Part shown: positions 13,156 through 31,571 of the stretch, piece by piece
How positions within the stretch are numbered: the stretch's first letter is position 1
How the letters are laid out: each line of letters starts with the position of its first letter
DNA from: an uncultured virus (IMG/VR IMGVR_UViG_3300032073_000002)
Taxonomy: Duplodnaviria > Heunggongvirae > Uroviricota > Caudoviricetes
DNA: 64,000 bases
Virus record (IMG/VR): IMGVR_UViG_3300032073_000002
Strand: one strand, 5' to 3'
Translations under genes and position numbers: made by a program
The notes under the pieces: model-generated
Database searches by the model: none
What the model saw: the letters and a program-made list of their open reading frames with translations, nothing else
What the model was told of the DNA's origin: nothing

Positions 13156-13866
13156 TCAGTTCAGTATGGGGTTACCTATTTCATCTAATTCAAAAGTAAA
13201 TTCATTCTCATTGGGTGGTGTCCCTTGAGGGTCTCTTCTACTTGGGGAAGCTGAAATTTGATGTACTCTACAATTGAACGAAATTGAGTATCTTTCTTTG
13301 TCTGTAGGATTGGGTTCTACCATATGCATTGCACCACTAGGAAACATTATAAGTCTTCCAGTGACAGGATGATATCCTATACTCTCGTGCATTCTAGCAT
13401 TGGTAGGATGGTCTGCGACTACCTTTGGGTCTGTATTGATTAGTTGTAGGTCACCTTCATCACCGTCTCCATGTATATAAAAAACTCCACTATACCAACA
13501 ACCATTATGTAAATGTGGTGTATTCCATGCACCTTTATCATTTATATTTGCCCATGTATTGTCTATTTTAACTTGTGCATCGTCGGGATGAACTCTGAAG
13601 AATTGTTGTACTTCATCTCTCAATGCAGTTTCAATACATCTAACAATCTTTGCAAAGGCTGGATGTTGTTCTACCCCATCTTGAGACTGCCAACCAGTGT
13701 ACCTGTTTGATATTTGTCTACCCTTGGGGTCTCTTTTTCTCCATGCATCCATTTCTTTTTTAAGAGTCATTATATATTCTTTGGAGACAGCATCTTTACC
13801 ATACTTCTCTTGGTCTAATAAATTTCTTTCAAATATGAATGTTGGGAATGCTAATCTAATTGTCAT
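13156..13866 (-). CDS. Putative 2OG-Fe(II) oxygenase (TIGR02466-like phage family)
   Basis: WANIN..NTPHLH..SGVFY and FPSGAMHMVEPN...RYSISFN pattern (HxH...H...RxS). Confidence 0.8.
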   Translation of the reverse strand: MTIRLAFPTFIFERNLLDQEKYGKDAVSKEYIMTLKKEMDAWRKRDPKGRQISNRYTGWQSQDGVEQHPAFAKIVRCIETALRDEVQQFFRVHPDDAQVKIDNTWANINDKGAWNTPHLHNGCWYSGVFYIHGDGDEGDLQLINTDPKVVADHPTNARMHESIGYHPVTGRLIMFPSGAMHMVEPNPTDKERYSISFNCRVHQISASPSRRDPQGTPPNENEFTFELDEIGNPILN

Positions 13867-14761
13867 CTGTATCTCCGAATAAATCTAATTGTACTTCTGC
13901 ATTTTTTTCTACTAAATCGGGATTATGCATAGGACACTCGGGTGGTGGATTATCTTCTTTAAACATTCTTCCCTTCTCATTCCAATACTTAATTCTTCTA
14001 TAGGCACCAGCCATTCCTTCAATATGTCTTTTCTCTTCTCTAAGTTCGGGTGACCTATTCCATTCATCCATTGTTTTTAGTTTACCACCATCTTCACCCA
14101 CTCTATGGGTAGTTCTAACTGACCTGTTCTCTTGCCACGATTGATTGTCGTATGTTATATAGGATGCATTCCAAGTCTCTCTTCTGTAAGGGATGATTTG
14201 AACTAATGGTGTTCCAGCTTTGATTATAAAATCTTTATTTGTTTTAGGATAGAAGATAATTTGAGAGTTATCCATATTAACATTAAATGCATCTGTATCA
14301 ATCATACCTTGCCATGTTGCAAAATACTTATTTTGAAATAGAAATGGGTCTAAGTATAGACAAGAATAGCCTGGCGGAGTAATAATATTCCATGGTGCTT
14401 TCATTTTGAATGCATCTTTTGTTGGTGCATCTTCTTTAGATAAGTAAGTAAATTGATGACCTGCTTGTCCAGCTGGATGTGTTGGTGATGAAAGTCTGTC
14501 CTGTGGGTCTGTTCTTGAATTACTAGAATGTTCACTTACAAATACTTGCATGTCTTTCTTTGCACAAATTAACCATCCAGTCTTTAACCAGTCATCCATA
14601 GCAGGACATGACCTTATAGTCTGAGTTTTGTGACCACGAACATTCTCTTGAACCTTCATAGTCTTCCACCAATCGGGAACTACTTTCTTTGCTAGAACTG
14701 GTCTCCAATTCTCCGTGGTTTGTTTATCATAACATGTAAATTCAATCGTAGGCATCTTCAC
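13856..14761 (-). CDS. Hypothetical protein, possibly dUTPase-like beta fold, of a type often found beside phage 2OG oxygenases
   Basis: CPAMDDW..G, PWNIITPPGYSCLY, GMIDTD and IIKAGTPLVQIIPYRRE. Confidence 0.5.
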   Translation of the reverse strand: MKMPTIEFTCYDKQTTENWRPVLAKKVVPDWWKTMKVQENVRGHKTQTIRSCPAMDDWLKTGWLICAKKDMQVFVSEHSSNSRTDPQDRLSSPTHPAGQAGHQFTYLSKEDAPTKDAFKMKAPWNIITPPGYSCLYLDPFLFQNKYFATWQGMIDTDAFNVNMDNSQIIFYPKTNKDFIIKAGTPLVQIIPYRRETWNASYITYDNQSWQENRSVRTTHRVGEDGGKLKTMDEWNRSPELREEKRHIEGMAGAYRRIKYWNEKGRMFKEDNPPPECPMHNPDLVEKNAEVQLDLFGDTDDN

Positions 14762-15446
14762 CCCATAAAGTCTTTAGACTAATTTCATCTCCTCTTATAA
14801 CCAAAGAACGTCTATCCATATACCTTGCAGCTGGTTTTGGTGCATCTGCACCATGTGGTATTCTTCCATCAAATATTAATAATCTATTGGGTTTAAAATA
14901 CACTTCTGCAACTTGATGATTTTTAATATGGTCTTCTCTTCCATGTATTCCTTGTTGCATTTTATCATACATTCTTAAAGAACCACCCCAAGAATCATTC
15001 CAAAACTTATTTGGATAATATAAAAATGAAAGATTCCAATCATCTTGAGGCTCACAATCTGCATGTGTTGTTCCCTCTAGTCCTTGAGTCTGAGAATTCA
15101 AACCAAAGTATTGAAATCTCTCCCACATAAATCCGAAGTCTGTTTGTAACTTTCTATTGAACCAATTCATAAGATATGTATCTTTAGGTTCCATACCACG
15201 TTCTATTTCTTGGTTCTCACCTCTAAAGAATCCAACACCCCAAAAACTATGGTGTGGTAGTCCTGTAGGGCTGTCTGAGTTTACTTGATTAGTTTTTGCC
15301 CAATAAGAATTTCTAGTTATCCTATCATCAATACAATGATGCATCGTTGTAGATAAGTAATCATCTAAAACGTATACCTTTTGCAAAGGCATATCTTTGA
15401 TATGGAAAGGTTCTTTAATGAACTCTAACTCAACGTTAAACCCCAT
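14742..15446 (-). CDS. 2OG-Fe(II) oxygenase, prolyl-hydroxylase-like
   Basis: HAD (HxD), LYYPNKFWNDSWGGSL and FKPNRLLIFDGRIPHGA...RRSL motifs. Confidence 0.8.
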   Translation of the reverse strand: MGFNVELEFIKEPFHIKDMPLQKVYVLDDYLSTTMHHCIDDRITRNSYWAKTNQVNSDSPTGLPHHSFWGVGFFRGENQEIERGMEPKDTYLMNWFNRKLQTDFGFMWERFQYFGLNSQTQGLEGTTHADCEPQDDWNLSFLYYPNKFWNDSWGGSLRMYDKMQQGIHGREDHIKNHQVAEVYFKPNRLLIFDGRIPHGADAPKPAARYMDRRSLVIRGDEISLKTLWGEDAYD

Positions 15447-16037: not shown

Positions 16038-17615
16038 CTAATCGCCAATTGGCAATCTTCTTTTCACTTTTAAAAAGTCTTCAAGATTATTTATGGTTGA
16101 ATAATCCATCCCTTTTACCCATGGGCCACCACGTGTATAATGTATACCACTGTAGTTGTACTTTTCTTCATGGTTATCATATCCTTCTACAAAGATATAA
16201 TGTTCGGGTATTTTAGAGATTTTATCTGTCCACTCAAATTGATGTAGCTGTTTTCCTGTCCAAGTGTTAACAACTTCGGGTGTTAGCTTCTTACAGTCTT
16301 CATGTCCATTATTGAATACCATCATACTAGACCAAAGCTTCTTAGGGTAATCTATATTAACTTCACCATCAAACTTTGTTTCATCATGTTTGTATTGTGG
16401 ATATTGTATACATGCAACAGCATCATTAGGGTTTAAGTAGTAAAACATTGGTAGTATACTTTTATTAAAGATGAAGTCATCATCAATAAAGATACTAAAT
16501 CCTTCGTAGTTCTCTAAGTAAGGTATTAGGAATCTACTGTATGTAAATTCAGTACTTTGATTTGCATACTCTCTAGTATACTCGGGAATCTTAGAAATGT
16601 CAAGTATTTTAACTTCGGGTTCCCATTTAACTTGGTCATGCATCCAACCTCTACCAAATCCGTTTTTAATACTTTCTAGGATTGCAAACTTAGAACACTT
16701 AGACAAATCTCCATGTCTACTATCATGTCCAATATAGATTGTTAGGGGTTTACCTTTTGCAAGTTCATAGACCTGTTTGTTAAATGCATGTACTTCATCT
16801 CTGAAATCTAAGTCCATTAATGCAGTATTATATTCAATACAACCATCCACATATGTGAATGAACAATGGTATTGCTTGTCTAATCTCTTTAACTTAGTAT
16901 ACCACATCTCTAATACGCTGTCAAGGCTTGTCGGTTCAACTTTCACAACATCAAAATTATCTATTACCATAATTTCCATATCGTTGTCTTGCATCTCTTC
17001 AAAGACACCCGAACGAATAGAGCCTGGGTGTATTCTAAATGTGTAAGTAGATTCAGTATTCATACCAGTGACACCATTATCTACAACATATCCTTGAATA
17101 GGAGCTCTTAAACCTTCCTCTTGGATACTTTGAATTAGCCAGTGTGCTTTTGCACCGTGATAATACATAGACAACAATGAACCCTCTGCATGTTGGTCTC
17201 TGTTTTCAACTGTGTCCCAATCGATTAATGTATCTATATCTACATATCCATTAGAATCTTTCATGTCCATACCTGCTACGCCTGGAATTACCTTTCTAGG
17301 TTTCTCTGCATAACCAACTGGTAAAAACTTGTGATAAGTTACTGACTCATTTCTTAATCCATTGAACCCACCAAATCTGTTTTCTTTTCTTAGATATTCA
17401 AAGTCTTTCCACTTTGCAATCTTTACTGGTGGTAGAATTTCTTTGAACATCCACTCAAGTATTTTATAGGTTTCTGAAGTTTTTGAATAGCCTGGTTCTA
17501 TATTAAATGCACCAAGATGAAAATTACCAATGGCCTGTCTTTCTTGTGAGGTTATCTTAGGGTCATAAGGTTTTATTAATTCTTTTGCTTGTTCTAGGGT
17601 TTCAATTTTCTGCAT
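16038..17615 (-). CDS. Two-domain protein: ParB/Srx-like N-terminus plus GT-A glycosyltransferase (CDI/GT8-related)
   Basis: C-terminus has IYIGHDSR, STEFTYSRFLIPYL, FIDDDF (DxD), YPKKLWSSMM and HYTRGGPW. N-terminus has LIQSIQEEGLRAPI...IHPGSIR. Confidence 0.8.
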   Translation of the reverse strand: MQKIETLEQAKELIKPYDPKITSQERQAIGNFHLGAFNIEPGYSKTSETYKILEWMFKEILPPVKIAKWKDFEYLRKENRFGGFNGLRNESVTYHKFLPVGYAEKPRKVIPGVAGMDMKDSNGYVDIDTLIDWDTVENRDQHAEGSLLSMYYHGAKAHWLIQSIQEEGLRAPIQGYVVDNGVTGMNTESTYTFRIHPGSIRSGVFEEMQDNDMEIMVIDNFDVVKVEPTSLDSVLEMWYTKLKRLDKQYHCSFTYVDGCIEYNTALMDLDFRDEVHAFNKQVYELAKGKPLTIYIGHDSRHGDLSKCSKFAILESIKNGFGRGWMHDQVKWEPEVKILDISKIPEYTREYANQSTEFTYSRFLIPYLENYEGFSIFIDDDFIFNKSILPMFYYLNPNDAVACIQYPQYKHDETKFDGEVNIDYPKKLWSSMMVFNNGHEDCKKLTPEVVNTWTGKQLHQFEWTDKISKIPEHYIFVEGYDNHEEKYNYSGIHYTRGGPWVKGMDYSTINNLEDFLKVKRRLPIGD

Positions 17616-17701: not shown

Positions 17702-19324
17702 CTATGATGTGATTGGTGTTGCAGGCCATTGTTGTGATACCACTCCATCCCATCTTGCTTCGGGTGTTCTCCCTTGTCTTGAATAGGTGAATGGACTTCT
17801 ATGCTGATAAGTCGTTGGTGTCTGACCTGTTCTTTGATATGTAAACGGACTTCTATGGTTATAAGTCGTTGGTGTCTGACCTTGTCTAGCATACGTAAAC
17901 GGTGACCTGTGAGAATATGTTACAGTTGTTTGACCAGTTCTTTGATACGTAAACGGTGTCTGTGCATTCCTTATGTTTGGTTCTTGAGCAGCTGCAATAT
18001 AAGGATACGGATTCTGTTTGTTTCTTATATTGGGTTCTTGTGCATTTACAGGATTCCTATAAGTGAACGGTGACCTATGTTGATACGTAGAAGGTTGACG
18101 TGCATTACTAGGATTCTGATAAGTAAACGGTGACCTATGACTATACGTAAACGGTGTCTGATTGTTTCTAATATTAGGTTCTTGTTGACTTCTAATATTA
18201 GGTTGTTGTGCATCTCTAATATTAGGTTCCTGTGCAGATACAGGACTTCTATATGTAAATGGTGACCTATGACTATACGTAAACGGTGTTTGTGCGTTTC
18301 TAATATTAGGTTCTTGTTGTGACCTTATATTTGGTTCTTGTTGGTTTCTAATATTAGGCTCTTGTGCATTACTAGGATTCTGATAAGTAAACGGTGACCT
18401 ATGACTATAGGTAAACGCTGCCTGATTGTTTCTAATATTAGGTTCTTGTTGTGACCTAATGTTCGGTTGTTGTATGTTTCTAATATTAGGTTCTTGTCCA
18501 TTACTAGGATTCTGATAAGTAAACGGTGACCTATGACTATACGTAAACGGTGTCTGATTGTTTCTTATGTTTGGTTCTTGTTGTGACCTAATGTTCGGTT
18601 CTTGTTGGTTTCTAATATTAGGCTCTTGTCCATTTACAGGATTTCTGTATGTAAACGGAGACCTATGGTTATAAGTAAACGCTGCTTGTGCATTTCTAAT
18701 ATTAGGTTCTTGTTGACTTCTAATATTAGGTTCTTGTGCCGAACGTATATTAGGTTCTTGTCCATTTACAGGACTTCTATATGTAAATGGAGACCTGTGG
18801 TTATAAGTAAACGGTGTTTGACCCTGTCTTGCATATGTAAATGGTGACCTATGAGAATACGTTAACGGTGACCTATGTGAATACGTTAAAGGTGACCTAT
18901 GTTGATATGAACTCGGTTGTCTTGCTTCTCTTATGTTAGGTTGTTGTGCAGATACAGGACTTCTATATGTAAATGGTGACCTATGATTATATGTAAACGG
19001 AGACCTATGGTTATAAGTAAACGGTTGTCTTGCATTAGCAATGTAAGGTACTCTGTATGTAAACGGATTCCTTGCATTATTAGGTTGTCTTGCGTTAGTA
19101 GGGTTCCTATATGTAAATGGTGCTTGGAATGTGAACGGTTGTTGACCATTCGCTGGATACCTAGCATTATACGTAAATGGTGCTTGGAATGTGAACGGTT
19201 GCTGTGCATTCGCTGGATACCTTGCACTATACGTAAATGGTTGTTGAACAATCGAAGGCGTCTGTACATCAACGGACACTTGTCCGTTTTTGATAGTCGG
19301 TTGTTGTCTTTGACCTATTGGCAT
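17702..19324 (-). CDS. Pro-rich modular repeat protein B (540 aa); predicted antiparallel partner of protein A
   Basis: Residues 7-518 parse entirely into 69 modules of 6, 8 or 10 aa (RSPFTY, RNPVNA, QEPNIRxx, RSPxTYxH, QNPYPYIAxA, RSPFTYxRxG). Confidence 0.85.
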   Translation of the reverse strand: MPIGQRQQPTIKNGQVSVDVQTPSIVQQPFTYSARYPANAQQPFTFQAPFTYNARYPANGQQPFTFQAPFTYRNPTNARQPNNARNPFTYRVPYIANARQPFTYNHRSPFTYNHRSPFTYRSPVSAQQPNIREARQPSSYQHRSPLTYSHRSPLTYSHRSPFTYARQGQTPFTYNHRSPFTYRSPVNGQEPNIRSAQEPNIRSQQEPNIRNAQAAFTYNHRSPFTYRNPVNGQEPNIRNQQEPNIRSQQEPNIRNNQTPFTYSHRSPFTYQNPSNGQEPNIRNIQQPNIRSQQEPNIRNNQAAFTYSHRSPFTYQNPSNAQEPNIRNQQEPNIRSQQEPNIRNAQTPFTYSHRSPFTYRSPVSAQEPNIRDAQQPNIRSQQEPNIRNNQTPFTYSHRSPFTYQNPSNARQPSTYQHRSPFTYRNPVNAQEPNIRNKQNPYPYIAAAQEPNIRNAQTPFTYQRTGQTTVTYSHRSPFTYARQGQTPTTYNHRSPFTYQRTGQTPTTYQHRSPFTYSRQGRTPEARWDGVVSQQWPATPITS

Positions 19325-19362
19325 TTTAGATTGTTCCTGTTATATTAATATTTCTCATTTGC

Positions 19363-21120
19363 TTACGGCTCCATGACATTAGGTGGATTACCACCACCAA
19401 AAGTGAAGTAGTATGTAAACGGACTTCTGTGTTGGTACGTTATGGGTTGTTGTGCAATACTTGGGGCCCTAGAGTTTGCACCAGTTCTTGCGTTTGCAAT
19501 GTAAGGCACTCTATATGTAAATGGGTTTCTTGCACTATTTGGTTGTCTTGCATTCGCTATATAAGGTTGTCTATATGTGAATGGGTTCCTTGCATCGTTA
19601 GGTTGCCTTGCATTAGTAGGGTTCCTGTACGTAAATGGTGCTTGGAATGTAAAAGGTTGCTGTGCATTCGCTGGATACCTTGCATCATACGTGAATGGAC
19701 TCCTTGCATCTCTAATGTTAGGTTGTTGAATTGCCCTAATGTTAGGTTCCTGTGCGTTTACTGGATTCCTATATGTAAACGGAGACCTATGGTTATAAGT
19801 AAACGCTGCCTGATTATTTCTAATATTAGGTTCTTGTTGTGACCTAATATTTGGTTCTTGTTGTGACCTAATATTTGGTTCTTGTGCATTTGCAATATAA
19901 GGATACGGTTGTTGTGCAGAACGAATATTAGGTTCTTGAGCAGACACAGGGTTCCTATATGTGAACGGTGACCTATGTTGATACGTAAATGGAGACCTAT
20001 GATTATATGTCAAAGGACTTCTATGTTGGTATGTACTAGGTTGTCTTGCTTCTCTTATGTTAGGCTCTTGTGCAGATACAGGACTTCTATATGTAAATGG
20101 AGACCTATGAGAATATTCCAAAGGCGACCTATGTGAATATGTTAACGGTGACCTATGTTGATAAGTTGCAGGCTGTCTTGCATCTCTAATATTAGGTTCT
20201 TGTCCATTCACTGGATTTCTGTAAGTGAATGGAGACCTATGTTGATAGGTAAATGGTGACCTGTGAGAATATGTCAAAGGACTTCTATGTTGGTATGTAC
20301 TAGGTTGTCTTGCTTCTCTAATATTAGGTTCTTGTCCATTCACTGGATTTCTGTACTCGAATGGAGACCTATGATTATATGTCAAAGGCGACCTATGTGA
20401 ATATGTTAACGGTGACCTATGTTGATACGTAGAAGGTTGTCTTGCATCTCTAATAAAAGGTGCTTGTCCATTCACTGGATTCCTATATGTAAACGGTGAC
20501 CTATGTTGATACGTAAATGGAGACCTATGACTATACGTTAAAGGACTTCTATGTTGATAAGTTGCAGGCTGTCTTGCATCTCTAATATTAGGTTCTTGTC
20601 CATTCACTGGATTTCTGTAAGTGAACGGTGTCTGTGCATTCCTTATGTTTGGTTCTTGTGCATTTACAGGGTTTTGATATGTAAACGGTGACCTATGTTG
20701 ATAAGTCGTTGGTGTTTGACCTTGTCTAGCATATGTAAATGGACTTCTATGTTGGTATGTACTAGGTTGTCTTGCTTGTGCTATATAAGGATACGGCTGT
20801 TGTTGGTCTCTTATATTAGGTTCTTGTGCATTTGCAATATAAGGATACGGATTCTGTTGGTTCCTTATGTTAGGCTCTTGTGCATTTGCAATATAAGGAT
20901 ACGGATTCTGTTTGTTTCTTATATTGGGTTCTTGTCCATTTGCAATGTATGGATAAGGAACTTGAGTCGCAGTCTGCCCCGATGCGTTATTCCATCCTGT
21001 AGGGGTTTTAATGTAGATTTGGTCAACTGCTTTCCATGTGGAACTAGCTGTTTTTACCCATGCACCTTGAGTTGAATTCCAACCTGCTGGTGTTTTGACC
21101 TTTTGTGAACCTGTTGCCAT
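19363..21120 (-). CDS. Pro-rich modular repeat protein A (585 aa) with N-terminal Trp-rich adaptor-like domain
   Basis: N-terminal KVKTPAGW..AWVKTASSTWKAVDQIYIKTPTGW, then 69 modules in residues 53-564; AATAAATA promoter-like element at 21145-21152. Confidence 0.85.
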   Translation of the reverse strand: MATGSQKVKTPAGWNSTQGAWVKTASSTWKAVDQIYIKTPTGWNNASGQTATQVPYPYIANGQEPNIRNKQNPYPYIANAQEPNIRNQQNPYPYIANAQEPNIRDQQQPYPYIAQARQPSTYQHRSPFTYARQGQTPTTYQHRSPFTYQNPVNAQEPNIRNAQTPFTYRNPVNGQEPNIRDARQPATYQHRSPLTYSHRSPFTYQHRSPFTYRNPVNGQAPFIRDARQPSTYQHRSPLTYSHRSPLTYNHRSPFEYRNPVNGQEPNIREARQPSTYQHRSPLTYSHRSPFTYQHRSPFTYRNPVNGQEPNIRDARQPATYQHRSPLTYSHRSPLEYSHRSPFTYRSPVSAQEPNIREARQPSTYQHRSPLTYNHRSPFTYQHRSPFTYRNPVSAQEPNIRSAQQPYPYIANAQEPNIRSQQEPNIRSQQEPNIRNNQAAFTYNHRSPFTYRNPVNAQEPNIRAIQQPNIRDARSPFTYDARYPANAQQPFTFQAPFTYRNPTNARQPNDARNPFTYRQPYIANARQPNSARNPFTYRVPYIANARTGANSRAPSIAQQPITYQHRSPFTYYFTFGGGNPPNVMEP

Positions 21121-21171: not shown

Positions 21172-23787
21172 TTAGGAGTAAAGAATCCACATATCACCAA
21201 CCGCTCCATCTGAACCGCCAGGTGCAGAAGTTGATTGGTAAACATTTCTTGCAGTTCCACCACTGTTAGATGCATTCGTTATTGTTAATGCACCTGTGGA
21301 TACCGCTGCTGGTGTTACTGATAATGCACCAGTTGAAGCACCTGTTGCAGTAGTTGTTCCGAATGCAAAACTTGATGCACTATCGTCCCAACCCATAAAC
21401 ACGTTACTTTCATCACCTCTCTCAATGACAATACCTGCGTCTCCCGATGGAGAACCAGTTGTCCCTGTTCCTAATTCAATCAACGAATCTTCGATAGTTG
21501 TGTTAGTTGAACTATTTGTTACTGTTGAACCATTTACTGTTAAGTTACCTGTAACTACAAGGTTACCACTTGCAGATACGTCTGCAAATTGAACATCACT
21601 AGTTGTTGCAACTGCCTGACCGATACTAACTTGACCCGAACTGATAGCAACACCAGTACCATTAGAGAAATGTGCTCTTGTCTCAGCTGCACTTGGCCCT
21701 GTATATGTAATAACACCAGTTGAATTGTTATATGCAAGTGAACCATCTCCACCTGCGTCTGTTACTGAAACTTTTCCTCTGATAGTTGCATCTGTAATTG
21801 CAAGGTCGACTGCACCGTCACCAGCATCATCATATGTTGCAGTGATGTTTGTGTGTGAACCGTTAGTTGCTAATTGAGTTCCAACTGTGTCTTGAATGTT
21901 TTCGTAAGGTACTCTAATTTCTAGTGTTCCAGCTGCATCATCATATGTTGTTGCAACGTTTACACCAGCAGTAATTAAAGCGTTAACTCTATCGTCAACT
22001 CTTTCATCTGTATAGTATAAGTTACCACTCTCACCAATGTGAGATGTGTTTAAAGTAACTGAAGCACCTAAGTCTACTGACTGTGAGTTAATTGTTACAC
22101 TGTCATTTGCAAGTTTACTGTTTGCAATTGAACCTGCTAACATGGCATTAGTAACACCAAGTGCTTTAACTCTTAATGCATCTGAATTTGTTTCGATTGA
22201 ACTATCGTCTACTCCGACTGATAGAACACCACTTGAATGTGCAAGACCGTCACCTGCTACTGAAGCATCTAGGTTTAAAGTAACTGCACCACTTGAACCA
22301 CCACCCGATAGACCGTCTCCAGCTGTAACACCTGTGATGTCCGCTGCGTTTCCGTCAATTGTAAGTGTTCCAGCTGCATCATCATATGTTGCAGTTATGT
22401 TTGTTCCACCAACAATCAATGAACCGACTCTGTCATCCACTCTTTCATTTGTAAAGTAAAGGTTACCACTCTCTGTGATTCCACCAGTGTTTAGTGTGAT
22501 GTTTGCTGTACCGTCAAATGAAACACCCGAGATAGTTCTTGCACTTGCAAGTGCAGTAGCAGTTCCTGCTAATCCTGTTGTATCTTGGTTAAGTGTTCCG
22601 ACTGCAAAGTCTAAAGTGTTATCTGCATCTTGATACGTAACTGTAAGACCACTTTCTGTATTAGAAGTGACCATATTACCAACTGTATCTGAAATAAATT
22701 CTGCGTCTACTGCAAGGTCAATAGTTCCATCTGCATCTTGATATGTTGCAGTAATACCTGTTTCAGTATTTGAACTGAACATTGCTCCAGCAATATCTTG
22801 AACTCTTTCTGTAGTGTGATATAAATTAGTTGAGCCTTCGTTTAAGTCATCTGAATCAAATGCACCCATATTGACTGCAACATCATTTGCATTAACTGTA
22901 ATACCAGTTCCAGCACCAATGTTTAATGTTGCAGCTCCACTTGTTGCACCACCAGTTAAACCCGAACCAGCAACTACTGATTCGATGTCACCAGCATCGT
23001 TTGTGAAACTGAATACACCAGTTGTGCTGTTGTATGATATATCACCAGTTGCTGATAGAGCAGCTCTTGCTCTTGCATCTGTAAAGTAAAGGTTACTTGA
23101 ACCTTCTGTAATTTCGTCTGAATTGTCTTTTGTTAGAATACTTGCATCAACATAAGCTTTAATTGATTGTTGTGATGCAGCGTGAGATGCACTGTTCGAA
23201 GACATATCGTCTTCGTCTTTAAGGTCGATTGCAATGTCATCTGCATTAACTGTGATACCTGTTCCAGCAATAGCATTTACTGTTACATCACCACTTGTTC
23301 CGCCACCTGTTAGACCTGCTCCAGCAACAACACTTGTTATGTCTCCAACTGGAACTGTTGCAACTTGAGTATCAACATATGCTTTAATTGATTGTTGAGT
23401 AGCTGCATGTACGGCACTATCTGATGCCATATTGTCTTCGTCTTTAAAGTTGATTGCAATATCGTCTGCATTTACAGTAATACCTGTACCAGCACCAATG
23501 TTTAATGTTGCATCTCCACTAGTTGCAGTACCAGTTAAACCAAGTCCTGCGTTAACTCCTGTGATATCACCAACATTACCTGTAATTGTAAGTGTCCCAG
23601 CTGAATCATCATATGATAATCCAATACCAGCACCTGCTGTTAGTAAGGTATTTGCAACGTGGTCATCGATGACCTCTATAGCTGCAGTACCAAATGCACC
23701 TGCTACTAAGTCACCCGAACTATCTAGAACATCATTTGTTCCTACGGATAGACCGTTCTTTAGTATAAAATTCTTTTCCCCTGCCAT
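21172..23787 (-). CDS. Tail fibre protein (871 aa, G/T/D-rich repeats)
   Basis: Repeats GDITxVxAGxGLTG, DEDxMxSxSAxHAAxQQSIKAYVD, EGSxNLYxT and TYDDAAGTL; C-terminal STSAPGGSDGAVGDMW motif. Confidence 0.8.
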   Translation of the reverse strand: MAGEKNFILKNGLSVGTNDVLDSSGDLVAGAFGTAAIEVIDDHVANTLLTAGAGIGLSYDDSAGTLTITGNVGDITGVNAGLGLTGTATSGDATLNIGAGTGITVNADDIAINFKDEDNMASDSAVHAATQQSIKAYVDTQVATVPVGDITSVVAGAGLTGGGTSGDVTVNAIAGTGITVNADDIAIDLKDEDDMSSNSASHAASQQSIKAYVDASILTKDNSDEITEGSSNLYFTDARARAALSATGDISYNSTTGVFSFTNDAGDIESVVAGSGLTGGATSGAATLNIGAGTGITVNANDVAVNMGAFDSDDLNEGSTNLYHTTERVQDIAGAMFSSNTETGITATYQDADGTIDLAVDAEFISDTVGNMVTSNTESGLTVTYQDADNTLDFAVGTLNQDTTGLAGTATALASARTISGVSFDGTANITLNTGGITESGNLYFTNERVDDRVGSLIVGGTNITATYDDAAGTLTIDGNAADITGVTAGDGLSGGGSSGAVTLNLDASVAGDGLAHSSGVLSVGVDDSSIETNSDALRVKALGVTNAMLAGSIANSKLANDSVTINSQSVDLGASVTLNTSHIGESGNLYYTDERVDDRVNALITAGVNVATTYDDAAGTLEIRVPYENIQDTVGTQLATNGSHTNITATYDDAGDGAVDLAITDATIRGKVSVTDAGGDGSLAYNNSTGVITYTGPSAAETRAHFSNGTGVAISSGQVSIGQAVATTSDVQFADVSASGNLVVTGNLTVNGSTVTNSSTNTTIEDSLIELGTGTTGSPSGDAGIVIERGDESNVFMGWDDSASSFAFGTTTATGASTGALSVTPAAVSTGALTITNASNSGGTARNVYQSTSAPGGSDGAVGDMWILYS

Positions 23788-28656: not shown

Positions 28657-29829
28657 TTAAGCACCAAACTCACCCATTGGGAACTGAGCAGTTGGTACAG
28701 ATTGGTGTGTTTTCCTTGCAGTTCCACTATCATTTACATAAGCTTCTTCTACCTTTCTTAGAGTTCCATTGTCATTAATGAATACACCTTTAACTTTTGC
28801 ATTTCTAGGTATGACTCTTTGATGTGAGTAAGTAACTTGATAGGTAAATGGACTTTGGTGTTGATATGATATCTGAGCTCCAGCATTATAGAAGAAAGGT
28901 GTTTGTGTATTTCTAATATTAGGTTGTTGTCCTTGTACTGAATTTTGATATGTGAACGGACTTCTATGTGCATAGGTAAATGGACTTCTTCCATCTGCAA
29001 TATATGGATAAGATACTTGCTTGTTTCTAATATTAGGTTCAGTTGCAGTTGCAATGTAAGGATAAGGTACATCGCGATTACCAATAGCTGGTTGTTGACC
29101 TGTTGTTGCATACGTAAATGGACTTCTATGTTGATAGATACTTGGTAATTGACCAGTTCTTTGATACGTAAATGGTGTTTGACTTTCTTTTACAACATTT
29201 GTTTGTGCATTACTAGGGTTTCTATATGTAAATGGAGACCTATGGTTGTATGAAACTTGTCTTATTGCTTGTCTATTATATGTAAACGGACTTCTTGTCT
29301 CGTAGGTAAACGGTGACCTATGAGCATATGTCGCAGGTTGTCTTGCATCACGTATGTTAGGTTCTCTTCCCTCTACAGGACTTCTATATGTGAGTGGACT
29401 TTGATGTTGATACGTAGACGGTGACCTGTGACTATATGTTAAAGGACTTCTATGTTGGTATGTATTAGGTTGTCTTGCCTCTCTTATGTTTGGTTCCTGT
29501 GCATTCACTGGACTTCTATAAGTGAACGGACTTCTATGTGCATAGGTAAATGGTGACCTGTGACTATATGTTAAAGGACTTCTATGTTGGTATGTACTAG
29601 GTTGTCTTGCTTCTCTAATATTAGGCTGTCTTGCATTTACAGGATTTCTATATGTAGTAGGTGTCTGACCCTGTGTGTCATAAGTTGCAGGCTGTCTTGC
29701 ATTTCTAATATTTGGTTCTTGTGCATTTGCAATATAGGGATAGGCGTTTTGTCTATTTGCTATAGAAGGCATCCTATATGAAACTATAGTAGGTTGTTGT
29801 AAACTATATGGTTGTTGAGCAATGGCCAT
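28657..29829 (-). CDS. Pro-rich modular repeat protein D (390 aa) with C-terminal adaptor-like domain; predicted partner of protein C
   Basis: Residues 5-336 parse into 43 modules; C-terminal KVKGVFINDNGTLRKVEEAYVNDSGTARK; start overlaps the stop of C. Confidence 0.85.
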   Translation of the reverse strand: MAIAQQPYSLQQPTIVSYRMPSIANRQNAYPYIANAQEPNIRNARQPATYDTQGQTPTTYRNPVNARQPNIREARQPSTYQHRSPLTYSHRSPFTYAHRSPFTYRSPVNAQEPNIREARQPNTYQHRSPLTYSHRSPSTYQHQSPLTYRSPVEGREPNIRDARQPATYAHRSPFTYETRSPFTYNRQAIRQVSYNHRSPFTYRNPSNAQTNVVKESQTPFTYQRTGQLPSIYQHRSPFTYATTGQQPAIGNRDVPYPYIATATEPNIRNKQVSYPYIADGRSPFTYAHRSPFTYQNSVQGQQPNIRNTQTPFFYNAGAQISYQHQSPFTYQVTYSHQRVIPRNAKVKGVFINDNGTLRKVEEAYVNDSGTARKTHQSVPTAQFPMGEFGA

Positions 29830-31571
29830 TATTGTAAATCTCCACCACCCTTAGACATCGACAATTGAATCAATTGACTCGTTGGGTTTGTTGTATAGAT
29901 AGTAGGATTACTTCCAACATTTCCATTCACAACTTTTAATTGTATTGAAACACCTGTAGAACGAAGATAACCTAAAGAACCTTGGTTACTACTGCCAGAA
30001 CTTGCAGACCACTTAAACCCTACCGCTGTTGAACTATTATCATTTTGTTCTCCATCCCAAATAAAATAAAATTGGTTTTTAACTTTTGCACCAGTTTCGT
30101 TAGCTGAATCATTTGGAAATTCAGCTGAACCACCAAAATTACTGTCATCTATATCAGCATTAGAATTCCATTTAGCAGATATCTCTATACCATCTCCATC
30201 TTGACTATCACCTTGGAAGTCTCCATAGAAGTTAATATAGTCTTCATAAACTGGGCCCATTGCTGCGCTATCGACTGCATACCATTTTGCTTTAACTGAA
30301 TATGCATTGGTACCACTTTCTTGCCAATCGAATCGCATTAAGCAACTGCCACTTGTTGCATATGCTGAAGAATGACTTCTTGTTGTTTCCCAAGTTCTAT
30401 TTGTTGTTGTGAGGCCTGACTGAGATTGACCCGCGTTAATATGAATCGCTGCACTGTTGCCTGGGCCCCAAGTAGTGTTGCCTGCATTGTTTGGTGCATC
30501 CTCTCCATCCACTCCATCATATATGGCGGGTTGTTGGGCAATTATTGGAGTTGATGAACTTGTAGTTGCTGGTGTCTGTACATTATAAGTCGTTGGTGTT
30601 TGACCTTGTCTTGCGTATGTAAATGGACTTTGATGTTGATAGGTAAACGGAGTCTGAGAATTTGCACTATAGGGATAAGGATTTTGTTTATTAACAGGGT
30701 TCTGATAAGTAAACGGTGACCTATAATTATAAGTAAACGCTGCTTGTGCATTTCTAATATTAGGTTCCTGTTGGTTTCTAATATTAGGCTCTTGTGCATT
30801 CTTAATAGTAGGTTGTTGTGCAGATACAGGATTCCTATATGTAAACGGTGACCTATGTTGATACGTAAACGCTGTTTGACTGCTTCTAATATTAGGTTCT
30901 TGCTGATTTCTTATATTAGGTTCTTGTTGGTTTCTAATATTTGGTTCTTGAGCAGACACAGGGTTCCTATAAGTGAACGGTGACCTGTAGTTATAAGTAA
31001 ACGGTGTTTGACTGTTTCTAATATTAGGTTCTTGTGCATTGACTTGATTCGATTCTTGTCCAGCTGCAATATAAGGATACGGTTGTTGTGTATCTCTTAT
31101 GTTCGGTTCTTGTGCATTTACAGGATTCTGATAAGTAAAGGGACTAGGGTGTTGGTAGAACCCAGGCTGTCTAGCATTTGCAATATAAGGATAAGGACTT
31201 TGTAAAGCCCTTCCATTTGGTTGTTGACCAGCTGCAATGTATGGATAAGGATTCTGAAAATTATATGTTGCTGGTTGCAGTCCTTGTCTTGCGTATGTAA
31301 ATGGACTTTGATGCTGATAGATTGTAGGTGTCTGACCCTGTCTTGTGTAAGTAAAGGGTTGTTGTGCATTCCTTATGTTTGGTTCTTGGCCAGATACAGG
31401 AGTATTGTATATGAACGGAGACCTGTATTGATACGTTGAGGGTTGACGAGATTCAGCTGTATAGATAGACTGTGTCTGTCTAATGTTTGGTTCTTGACCA
31501 TTTACTGGAACTCGAGCATTGTACGGTTGCTGAATTTCCGTTTCTATGTTTACAAATATTTCTTCAGACAT
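29829..31571 (-). CDS. Pro-rich modular repeat protein C (580 aa) with a C-terminal globular, possibly receptor-binding domain
   Basis: Residues 14-345 parse into 43 modules; about 230 non-repetitive S/G/N/W-rich residues follow. Confidence 0.85.
   Translation of the reverse strand: MSEEIFVNIETEIQQPYNARVPVNGQEPNIRQTQSIYTAESRQPSTYQYRSPFIYNTPVSGQEPNIRNAQQPFTYTRQGQTPTIYQHQSPFTYARQGLQPATYNFQNPYPYIAAGQQPNGRALQSPYPYIANARQPGFYQHPSPFTYQNPVNAQEPNIRDTQQPYPYIAAGQESNQVNAQEPNIRNSQTPFTYNYRSPFTYRNPVSAQEPNIRNQQEPNIRNQQEPNIRSSQTAFTYQHRSPFTYRNPVSAQQPTIKNAQEPNIRNQQEPNIRNAQAAFTYNYRSPFTYQNPVNKQNPYPYSANSQTPFTYQHQSPFTYARQGQTPTTYNVQTPATTSSSTPIIAQQPAIYDGVDGEDAPNNAGNTTWGPGNSAAIHINAGQSQSGLTTTNRTWETTRSHSSAYATSGSCLMRFDWQESGTNAYSVKAKWYAVDSAAMGPVYEDYINFYGDFQGDSQDGDGIEISAKWNSNADIDDSNFGGSAEFPNDSANETGAKVKNQFYFIWDGEQNDNSSTAVGFKWSASSGSSNQGSLGYLRSTGVSIQLKVVNGNVGSNPTIYTTNPTSQLIQLSMSKGGGDLQ

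Follow-up and report, generated by a model that had tools for sequence, protein, structure and literature searches.

Analysis of a 64,000-nucleotide stretch of DNA from an uncultured virus of the Caudoviricetes (IMG/VR record IMGVR_UViG_3300032073_000002; this whole stretch is hereafter called the window) revealed two adjacent genes, here named A and B, whose products are built from proline-punctuated modules of 6, 8 or 10 residues (units), with the unit order of B being the reverse complement of the unit order of A. The window comes from a T4-like myophage, of which it represents the late structural region. The mirror relation was confirmed as real, lies far beyond chance and is conserved in related phages through compensatory evolution. 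A and B probably associate with each other, antiparallel and in register, and would thereby form the virion fibre shaft of an uncultured marine T4-like myophage.

Mirror order of the units in A and B

The layout of the two genes, each given as an open reading frame (ORF) with its parts, is shown below; the letters in the two cores denote unit types.

19363..21120, minus strand: gene A, ORF of 585 amino acids with a conserved N-terminal domain, a 512-residue repeat core and a short GGG-containing tail
20965..21120, minus strand: residues 1-52 of A, N-terminal domain (MATGSQKVKTPAGWN...KTPTGWNNASGQ), near-identical in all A-type loci inspected, with invariant columns; proposed base/attachment end
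19429..20964, minus strand: core of A, residues 53-564, 69 units, YNYNYNYHGHFVNFV(NHHHFV)x5NYNNNHFVNNDVFFVVFIVFI followed by 3 units
19924..20628, minus strand: 132-bp tandem array in A encoding (NHHHFV)x5, 5.3 copies, 77% matches
19366..19428, minus strand: tail of A, RSPFTYYFTFGGGNPPNVMEP, residues 565-585; some relatives carry a Hint/intein-like domain here, right after GGGG|C
17702..19324, minus strand: gene B, ORF of 540 amino acids, same-strand paralogue of A with the reverse-complement unit order
17771..19306, minus strand: core of B, residues 7-518, 69 units, 3 units followed by DVFDVFFVVFIHHFVNHHHGH(FVNNNH)x5FVHFVNYNGHGHGHG
18103..18821, minus strand: 132-bp tandem array in B encoding (FVNNNH)x5, 5.4 copies, 83% matches
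17705..17770, minus strand: C-terminal tail of B, RTPEARWDGVVSQQWPATPITS, residues 519-540, conserved family-wide

The two ORFs are separated by 38 nucleotides, and the A of the window ends 11 residues after the start of its GGG. Comparison of B with A in blastp showed 50% identity (E 2.6e-156). Since the 132-bp arrays are just 77-83% self-identical, a collapse of the assembly in the window is argued against.

Both ORFs were found where a sequence-only reading of this DNA had placed them, and a hand parse reproduced its central count, namely 69 units in each 512-residue core, 66 consecutive units complementary between A and reversed B, and equal unit lengths at all 69 positions. One of the last three positions was also complementary (QQPITYQH facing QQPTIKNG), and two agreed in length only. 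A template parser returned identical strings once '[2]I' was taken as the 10-residue Y unit. The parse was repeated with a name-blind parser that cuts 6-, 8- and 10-mers with proline at position 3 and uses only the length and the class of each unit, where the aromatic class (T) has Y or F at position 6 and any residue except P at position 5. Local alignment of A with reversed-and-complemented B by this parser gave 66/66 units with a score of 132, while the same strings scored 11 for reversal only, 22 for complementation only and 50 in the forward direction. The comparison with shuffled unit orders that the sequence-only reading had called for was run, and 200 shuffles of B's units gave a mean score of 16.8 and a maximum of 29.

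A refined parser gave 68/70 units and a score of 134 for the same comparison. Reverse complementation of the repeat grammar, (N|Y)*(H|G)*FV, yields the same grammar again, which lowers the surprise somewhat, so that the non-random part lies in how the copy numbers are swapped and the blocks are ordered. This part was tested by a stricter null, in which whole FV-delimited blocks of B were shuffled and the repeat grammar was preserved, and none of 1000 trials reached the observed score (maximum 114 against 134).

The mirror relation is not carried by the DNA. As had been claimed, the DNA is not an inverted repeat: positions 17702-21120 contained 0 inverted repeats of at least 14 bases. All high-scoring segment pairs (HSPs) between genes A and B in blastn (72/72) were plus/plus, and B found no match in the antisense frames of gene A (best E 1.3). 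On these three results a sense-antisense peptide pair was rejected. Antisense (plus strand) open frames of 81-137 codons do lie over the repeat genes in window positions 18602-21075, for example at 19429-19842. The PNIR codons have a palindromic AATATT core, and NIR-like strings thus recur in antisense frames; we regard these open frames as a side effect of repeat composition.

Conservation and proposed pairing code in related phages

A search of public proteins gave 420 relatives of A at E <= 0.001. Scanning of viral contigs yielded 72 loci (numbered with the prefix L), and every locus that included both ends had an adjacent pair of repeat ORFs. The expectation that homologous pairs should keep complementarity despite different unit orders was checked on the distinct pairs and was upheld in 52/52, in spite of very different unit orders and lengths. 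For each of the 52, the reverse-complement score from the refined parser was higher than all three controls and higher than the maximum of 100 shuffles, and complementary units made up 1888 of the 2039 aligned. Pairs of differing architecture still fit, with 37/37 units for L027, 49/49 for L016 and 64/69 for L057. Copy numbers of (NHHHFV)n in A and (FVNNNH)n in B were 5/5 in the window, 5/5 in L008, 4/4 in L011, 3/3 in L013, 3/3 in L016 and 2/2 in L018, and those of (HG)n and (YN)n were 6/6 in L027 and 5/5 in each of L028, L029 and L032. When the truncated or reordered loci L015, L022 and L072 were left out, 41 distinct architectures were obtained, and the cognate B was top-ranked, alone or tied, for 35/41 A architectures. 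In L015, which is near-identical to the window, the copy number of a 44-residue block stood at ?/6, and differences of this kind concerned one of the two genes only.

For the pairing of unit subtypes, 10 near-duplicate loci were dropped, and the remaining 42 pairs gave 759 paired 8-mers from an alignment that used only length and class. The fixed rule proposed for the window (F:V, N:H, Y:G and D:I) was recovered across the family, with H:N and D:I emerging though they were unused in the alignment. Aromatic 8-mers ending in H, Y or F faced xxPxI[RK] units in 512 cases, YIA-type units in 20 and others in 25, whereas aromatic 8-mers with other endings faced YIA-type units in 187 cases, xxPxI[RK] in 2 and others in 13. 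At least 215 of the 239 paired 10-mers were xTYx[RT]x[GA] against YPY[IQ]A. Among the 25 commonest 6-mer combinations, all 61 xxPFTF units were opposite xQPN[NSD]x. Mutual information between partner positions was high, for example between position 4 of the aromatic unit and the last position of its partner (0.36-0.9 bits); it was rejected as contact evidence, both positions also depending on each unit's own neighbours.

The ends of A differ among the relatives. A Hint/intein-type domain stands at the A C-terminus right after GGGG|C in L033, L035, L041, L048, L052 and L065, and Pfam searches of relatives gave Intein_splicing for P0001 (1.2e-10) and Vint for P0003 (4.4e-7). No Cys, Ser or Thr follows the final HN of the Hint domain in four sequences (P0001-P0004). 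Self-cleavage at the predicted tip of the fibre is suggested by these features. The window's A gave no Hint match in the Pfam search. Other relatives have an A with unrelated C-terminal extensions of 150-200 residues. The spacing between A and B was about 300 nucleotides in L036, L039, L043, L047, L054, L056, L064 and L068 and 2-50 nucleotides elsewhere, and in these eight loci A is extended at its C-terminus by a stretch belonging neither to Hint nor to a Pfam family. A fused A-B form was not found at E <= 1e-10 among proteins of 1025-2925 amino acids, which is weak evidence, nor among the 120 near-length matches listed.

Predicted fibre shaft and competing explanations

Periodicity was counted straight over the 512 core residues, with no parse. 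Every proline was at an odd core position (72/72 in A and 66/66 in B), and every Tyr, Phe and His was at an even one (84/84 and 81/81, respectively). Across the family, where the parser supplied the phase, 3347/3351 prolines were odd and 4069/4092 aromatics were even. A period of two over hundreds of residues is that of an extended beta strand, and a polyproline helix has a period of three; the two cores thus fit extended beta strands. The earlier suggestion that even unit lengths preserve the in/out alternation of a strand draws support from the unbroken period of two in both cores. Helices would be excluded for A and B by the proline every 6-10 residues together with the period-2 pattern. 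No heptads were found, and Gly-X-Y runs of at least three triplets numbered 0 in A and B, on which a collagen-like protein was rejected.

Searches for known folds and families gave little for the two proteins. A sequence search of solved structures returned 0 matches at E <= 1 for A and likewise for C (a gene of the second pair described below), and the ESM Atlas gave only unnamed viral clusters for A (best 0.91) and no structural model of it. The only Pfam or PHROG match for either protein was Cementoin (PF10511) on A, with 48.6 bits over the full sequence against a cutoff of 27, no single stretch passing and B without a match. The likeness to Cementoin lies in a hexapeptide periodicity with Gln and Pro. 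With 0 stretches passing alone and the Lys of the transglutaminase motif nearly absent, membership was rejected and the match was read as a periodicity artefact. Complex prediction for A 1-262 with B 309-540, on 6-row alignments, gave a score of 0.00 and a partner predicted local distance difference test (pLDDT) below 50, which speaks neither for nor against binding.

We infer physical pairing, the beta conformation, the fibre role and the orientation from the sequences. In the proposed model, A and B would be paralogous, proline-punctuated repeat proteins in extended strands lying side by side and antiparallel, with unit i of A packed against unit 70-i of B. A unit would pair only with one of equal length (6, 8 or 10) and opposite class, aromatic xxPFTY-type against non-aromatic, giving the pair types F:V, H:N, D:I and G:Y, and this requirement would set both register and partner. 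The N-terminal domain of A and the C-terminal tail of B would meet at one end, the base docking on the virion, and the variable C-terminus of A with the N-terminus of B would form the tip at the other. The pair would thus be the two-gene equivalent of a single long hairpin. Results showed that the most conserved segments of the family are the first 52 residues of A and the last 22 of B, both of which the antiparallel model puts at one end. These conserved terminal segments, set beside the variable unit order, length and A C-terminus, agree with the conserved attachment and variable shaft or distal end expected of a fibre, and so does the placing of the genes in a late structural module, where baseplate, fibre and neck genes are close by. 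A length of about 170 nm is obtained as 512 x 0.33 nm, which is arithmetic only.

The sequence-only reading had proposed an antiparallel two-chain beta-ribbon. Its antiparallel and strand-like part is backed by the unit-level code kept in homologues and by the period of two; the charge and the aromatic face argue against its bare two-chain form. The net charge was +39 for A and +37 for B. Arginine is regularly spaced, with 42 of the 58 core Arg of A on the proline face, and lysine is nearly absent (6 in A and 2 in B). With the register shifted by an odd number, all prolines would come to lie on non-bonded sites and the aromatics of both chains on one face, and such a one-faced, amphipathic ribbon would be expected to bundle. 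Since both chains are strongly basic and the aromatics can all share one face, a higher-order bundle or a bound partner is favoured, and several A:B ribbons bundled so as to bury their aromatic faces seem likelier than the duplex on its own.

Several points weigh against antiparallel pairing in register. A bare A:B duplex would be strongly self-repelling, both chains being very basic. In the unit-aligned register, where proline faces Tyr in 43, Arg in 35 and Phe in 24 of 138 cases, odd positions would be set against even ones, and in a two-stranded sheet hydrogen-bonded sites would be taken up by prolines of one of the chains. The mutual information between partners is unreadable as contacts, being confounded by the sequence context of each unit. 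The cognate was not the best partner in 6/41 architectures (L005, L007, L019, L023, L036 and L039), and near-identical contigs carried unequal copy numbers in A and B, namely 5/4 in L005, 3/5 in L007, 2/3 in L019 and 4/5 in L026. These are short-read metagenome contigs, and the inequalities could be assembly errors (collapse) in repeats or real, tolerated mismatches. No cultured phage was found to carry the genes by tblastn with the low-complexity filter on.

The mirror order might also arise in a co-assembly without direct contact between units, in which A and B form homo-oligomeric rods or are held by a third, scaffold protein and selection acts on matched local lengths only. Length matching is indeed the most robust part of the rule, and the positive charge would be more easily tolerated with a third, acidic component between the chains. 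Against this explanation, which we consider unlikely, stands the class complementarity beyond length: the match was still 66/66 with same-length, same-class units scored as mismatches, the same-length types H:N and D:I were kept apart in 699 of the 759 8-mer pairs, and a pure ruler would have no need of opposite classes. A more distant candidate is that both proteins bind, as polycations, to a polyanion (packaged DNA or a polymer of the host surface, for instance), with the mirror order imposed by an antiparallel or two-fold symmetric ligand. The high net charges, the regular spacing of arginine and the lack of any fold or family assignment obtained are in its favour, but the genes lie among fibre, baseplate and neck genes, the conserved domains are at one end and the variable or globular ones at the other as in phage fibres, and nothing links A and B to DNA, which makes a polyanion ligand decidedly improbable.

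That the mirror relation is a functionless by-product of inverted duplication, sense-antisense coding, chance or parsing was largely refuted and has scarcely any probability left. The closure of the grammar under reverse complementation does inflate naive match counts, and the two paralogues A and B draw on a single set of units. Neither inverted repeats nor antisense similarity was found, however, all HSPs were on the same strand, and no block shuffle reached the observed score; independent compensatory copy-number changes in both genes, in many lineages, need selection. Direct antiparallel pairing of A with B in a fibre shaft remains the explanation that we prefer.

Among known systems, the T4 gp37 needle comes closest, being a thin fibre shaft with antiparallel legs of matched length along the axis and regularly spaced His. 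In the D10-D11 part of this needle the strands reportedly run out to the tip and back, according to a crystal structure paper of 2010. Both legs of gp37 belong to one polypeptide in a homotrimer, whereas A and B are two gene products with no fused form found; gp37 has HxH motifs and no unit alphabet or complement rule, whereas A and B have a unit code and no HxH. In the passages of one account that concern the needle, D10 of the tip is made from residues 811-881 and 1010-1026, and seven histidine-held iron atoms lie along the shaft (PMC6957217). HxH motifs numbered 0 in A and 0 in B, the H unit having a single His, and with the legs in two ORFs a gp37 needle type was rejected.

Spectrin alpha and beta are paralogous antiparallel repeat chains with 106-residue three-helix repeats of one length, and their specificity lies mainly in a nucleation site. 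A and B would resemble them as two paralogous repeat proteins lying side by side and antiparallel along their length, but differ in having three unit lengths, two classes and a whole order that is complementary. A spectrin-like helical heterodimer was rejected: A and B are paralogous at 50% identity, but have the proline spacing and the period of two. The stalk of streptococcal antigen I/II is formed by one chain, whose alpha helix is wrapped in a polyproline-II helix, with the head at the fold-back. Its likeness to the proposed A:B shaft is the antiparallel pairing of two different repeat regions, one of those in the stalk being proline-rich, into a long thin structure. A and B, by contrast, are separate chains that each show the period-2, beta-like pattern, and they have a discrete unit code. 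In heterospecific coiled coils and collagen heterotrimers, short periodic patterns set the partner and the register of long fibrous assemblies; in A and B the unit of specificity would instead be a whole module of 6-10 residues with a length code.

A second gene pair, neighbouring genes and significance

A second pair of the same kind, C and D, is present in the window, and the closest record, G001, has both pairs. The features of this pair and of the genes downstream of B are as follows.

29829..31571, minus strand: gene C, 580 amino acids, repeat core and C-terminal 220-residue all-beta domain (29832-30491)
28657..29829, minus strand: gene D, 390 amino acids, partner of C
16038..17615, minus strand: 525-amino-acid protein with a GT-A/GT8-type glycosyltransferase domain (Pfam Glyco_transf_8, 2.5e-4, 21.2 bits, below the 24.3-bit cutoff)
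14742..15446 and 13156..13866, minus strand: two 2-oxoglutarate (2OG)-Fe(II) oxygenases (Pfam 2OG-FeII_Oxy_3, 8.2e-8; 2OG-FeII_Oxy_5, 2.8e-20) with a 299-amino-acid ORF between them

Alignment of C with reversed-complemented D gave 39/42 units and a score of 72, a hand parse gave 40 consecutive units, and 2 of 1000 trials of the block-shuffle null reached the score. Within the window, A:B scored 134 and C:D 72, while the four cross pairs scored 28-48 and the self pairs 27-50. With cross and self scores this low, the two pairs of one phage should not mix. The 220-residue domain of C, at the predicted tip end, was modelled by AF2 with a pLDDT of 74.1; Foldseek gave no PDB match for it at E <= 0.001, and the best VIA-align match (Z 4.3) was to pilus adhesins, from which no fold assignment follows. 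The C-terminus of D (KVKGVFINDNGTLRKVEEAYVNDSGTARK) resembles the strand-turn motif of the N-terminal domain of A.

A PHROG scan of the window showed the portal, sheath, terminase, head-tail adaptor, closure, baseplate wedge and hub. Portal identity was about 56% with Pelagibacter phage Mosig and with Methylophilales phage Melnitz, and about 54% with cyanomyophages, which points to an uncultured marine lineage. A and B are placed between genes for baseplate wedge and structural (large, fibre-like) proteins and the neck (head-tail adaptor and closure) genes, a location that was compared with the gene order of T4. Upstream of A, at 21172-23787 on the minus strand, lies a probable further component of the fibre apparatus, an 871-amino-acid protein that has internal repeats of its own (GTGITVNADDIAI..., YFTxERVDDRV...) and matched PHROG 697, 'structural protein'.

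The order downstream of B is the 525-amino-acid protein, a 185-amino-acid ORF and the two 2OG-Fe(II) oxygenases around the 299-amino-acid ORF. The model of the 525-amino-acid protein (AF2, pLDDT 80.5) had the PBCV-1 capsid glycosyltransferase 2p6w as its best Foldseek match (E 2.3e-5), followed by LgtC, the UGGT catalytic domain and glycogenin, and the best matches were protein-directed GT-A enzymes. The downstream survey covered 23 A/B-type loci, a 24th (L058) being of the C/D type. ORFs of about 185, 235, 300 and 235 amino acids followed B in identical order in 23/23 loci. An ORF of 510-553 amino acids stood directly after B in 20/23, L016 has a 409-amino-acid ORF there, and L008 and L012 had no ATG-started ORF of at least 100 amino acids in the gap after B. 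Sixteen of the ORFs after B aligned to the 525-amino-acid protein of the window with 43-95% identity. These neighbours may hydroxylate and glycosylate the Pro/Tyr/Thr-rich repeats as a modification cassette, or may simply reflect backbone synteny.

Motif and topic searches of open-access papers and bioRxiv, with subscription journals outside their scope, gave no description of the family or of the pairing code. A pairing code of this kind has thus not been described before in the open literature searched. The further reading is that A:B is a natural protein 'duplex', in which antiparallel recognition over more than 500 residues follows a digital code with at least four orthogonal unit pairs that set partner and register; we hold the chances of this to be evenly balanced. 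As part of this duplex reading, the code would evolve by compensatory insertions and deletions, much like RNA helices, and a single phage appears to build two fibres with it, A:B and C:D, that do not cross.

If the pairing is physical, protein-protein recognition would be readable from sequence, being modular, length-coded and checked by compensatory evolution, and partner and register would be predictable unit by unit. It would then supply natural rules for the construction of long, hetero-specific beta assemblies, and under the duplex reading the code could find further use in programmable protein assemblies. For the phages themselves, physical pairing would mean a new fibre architecture in abundant ocean viruses and would explain how fibre length varies among relatives, from about 21 to 69 paired units, without loss of assembly; if the duplex reading is true, fibre length would be tunable about three-fold by the addition of matched units.

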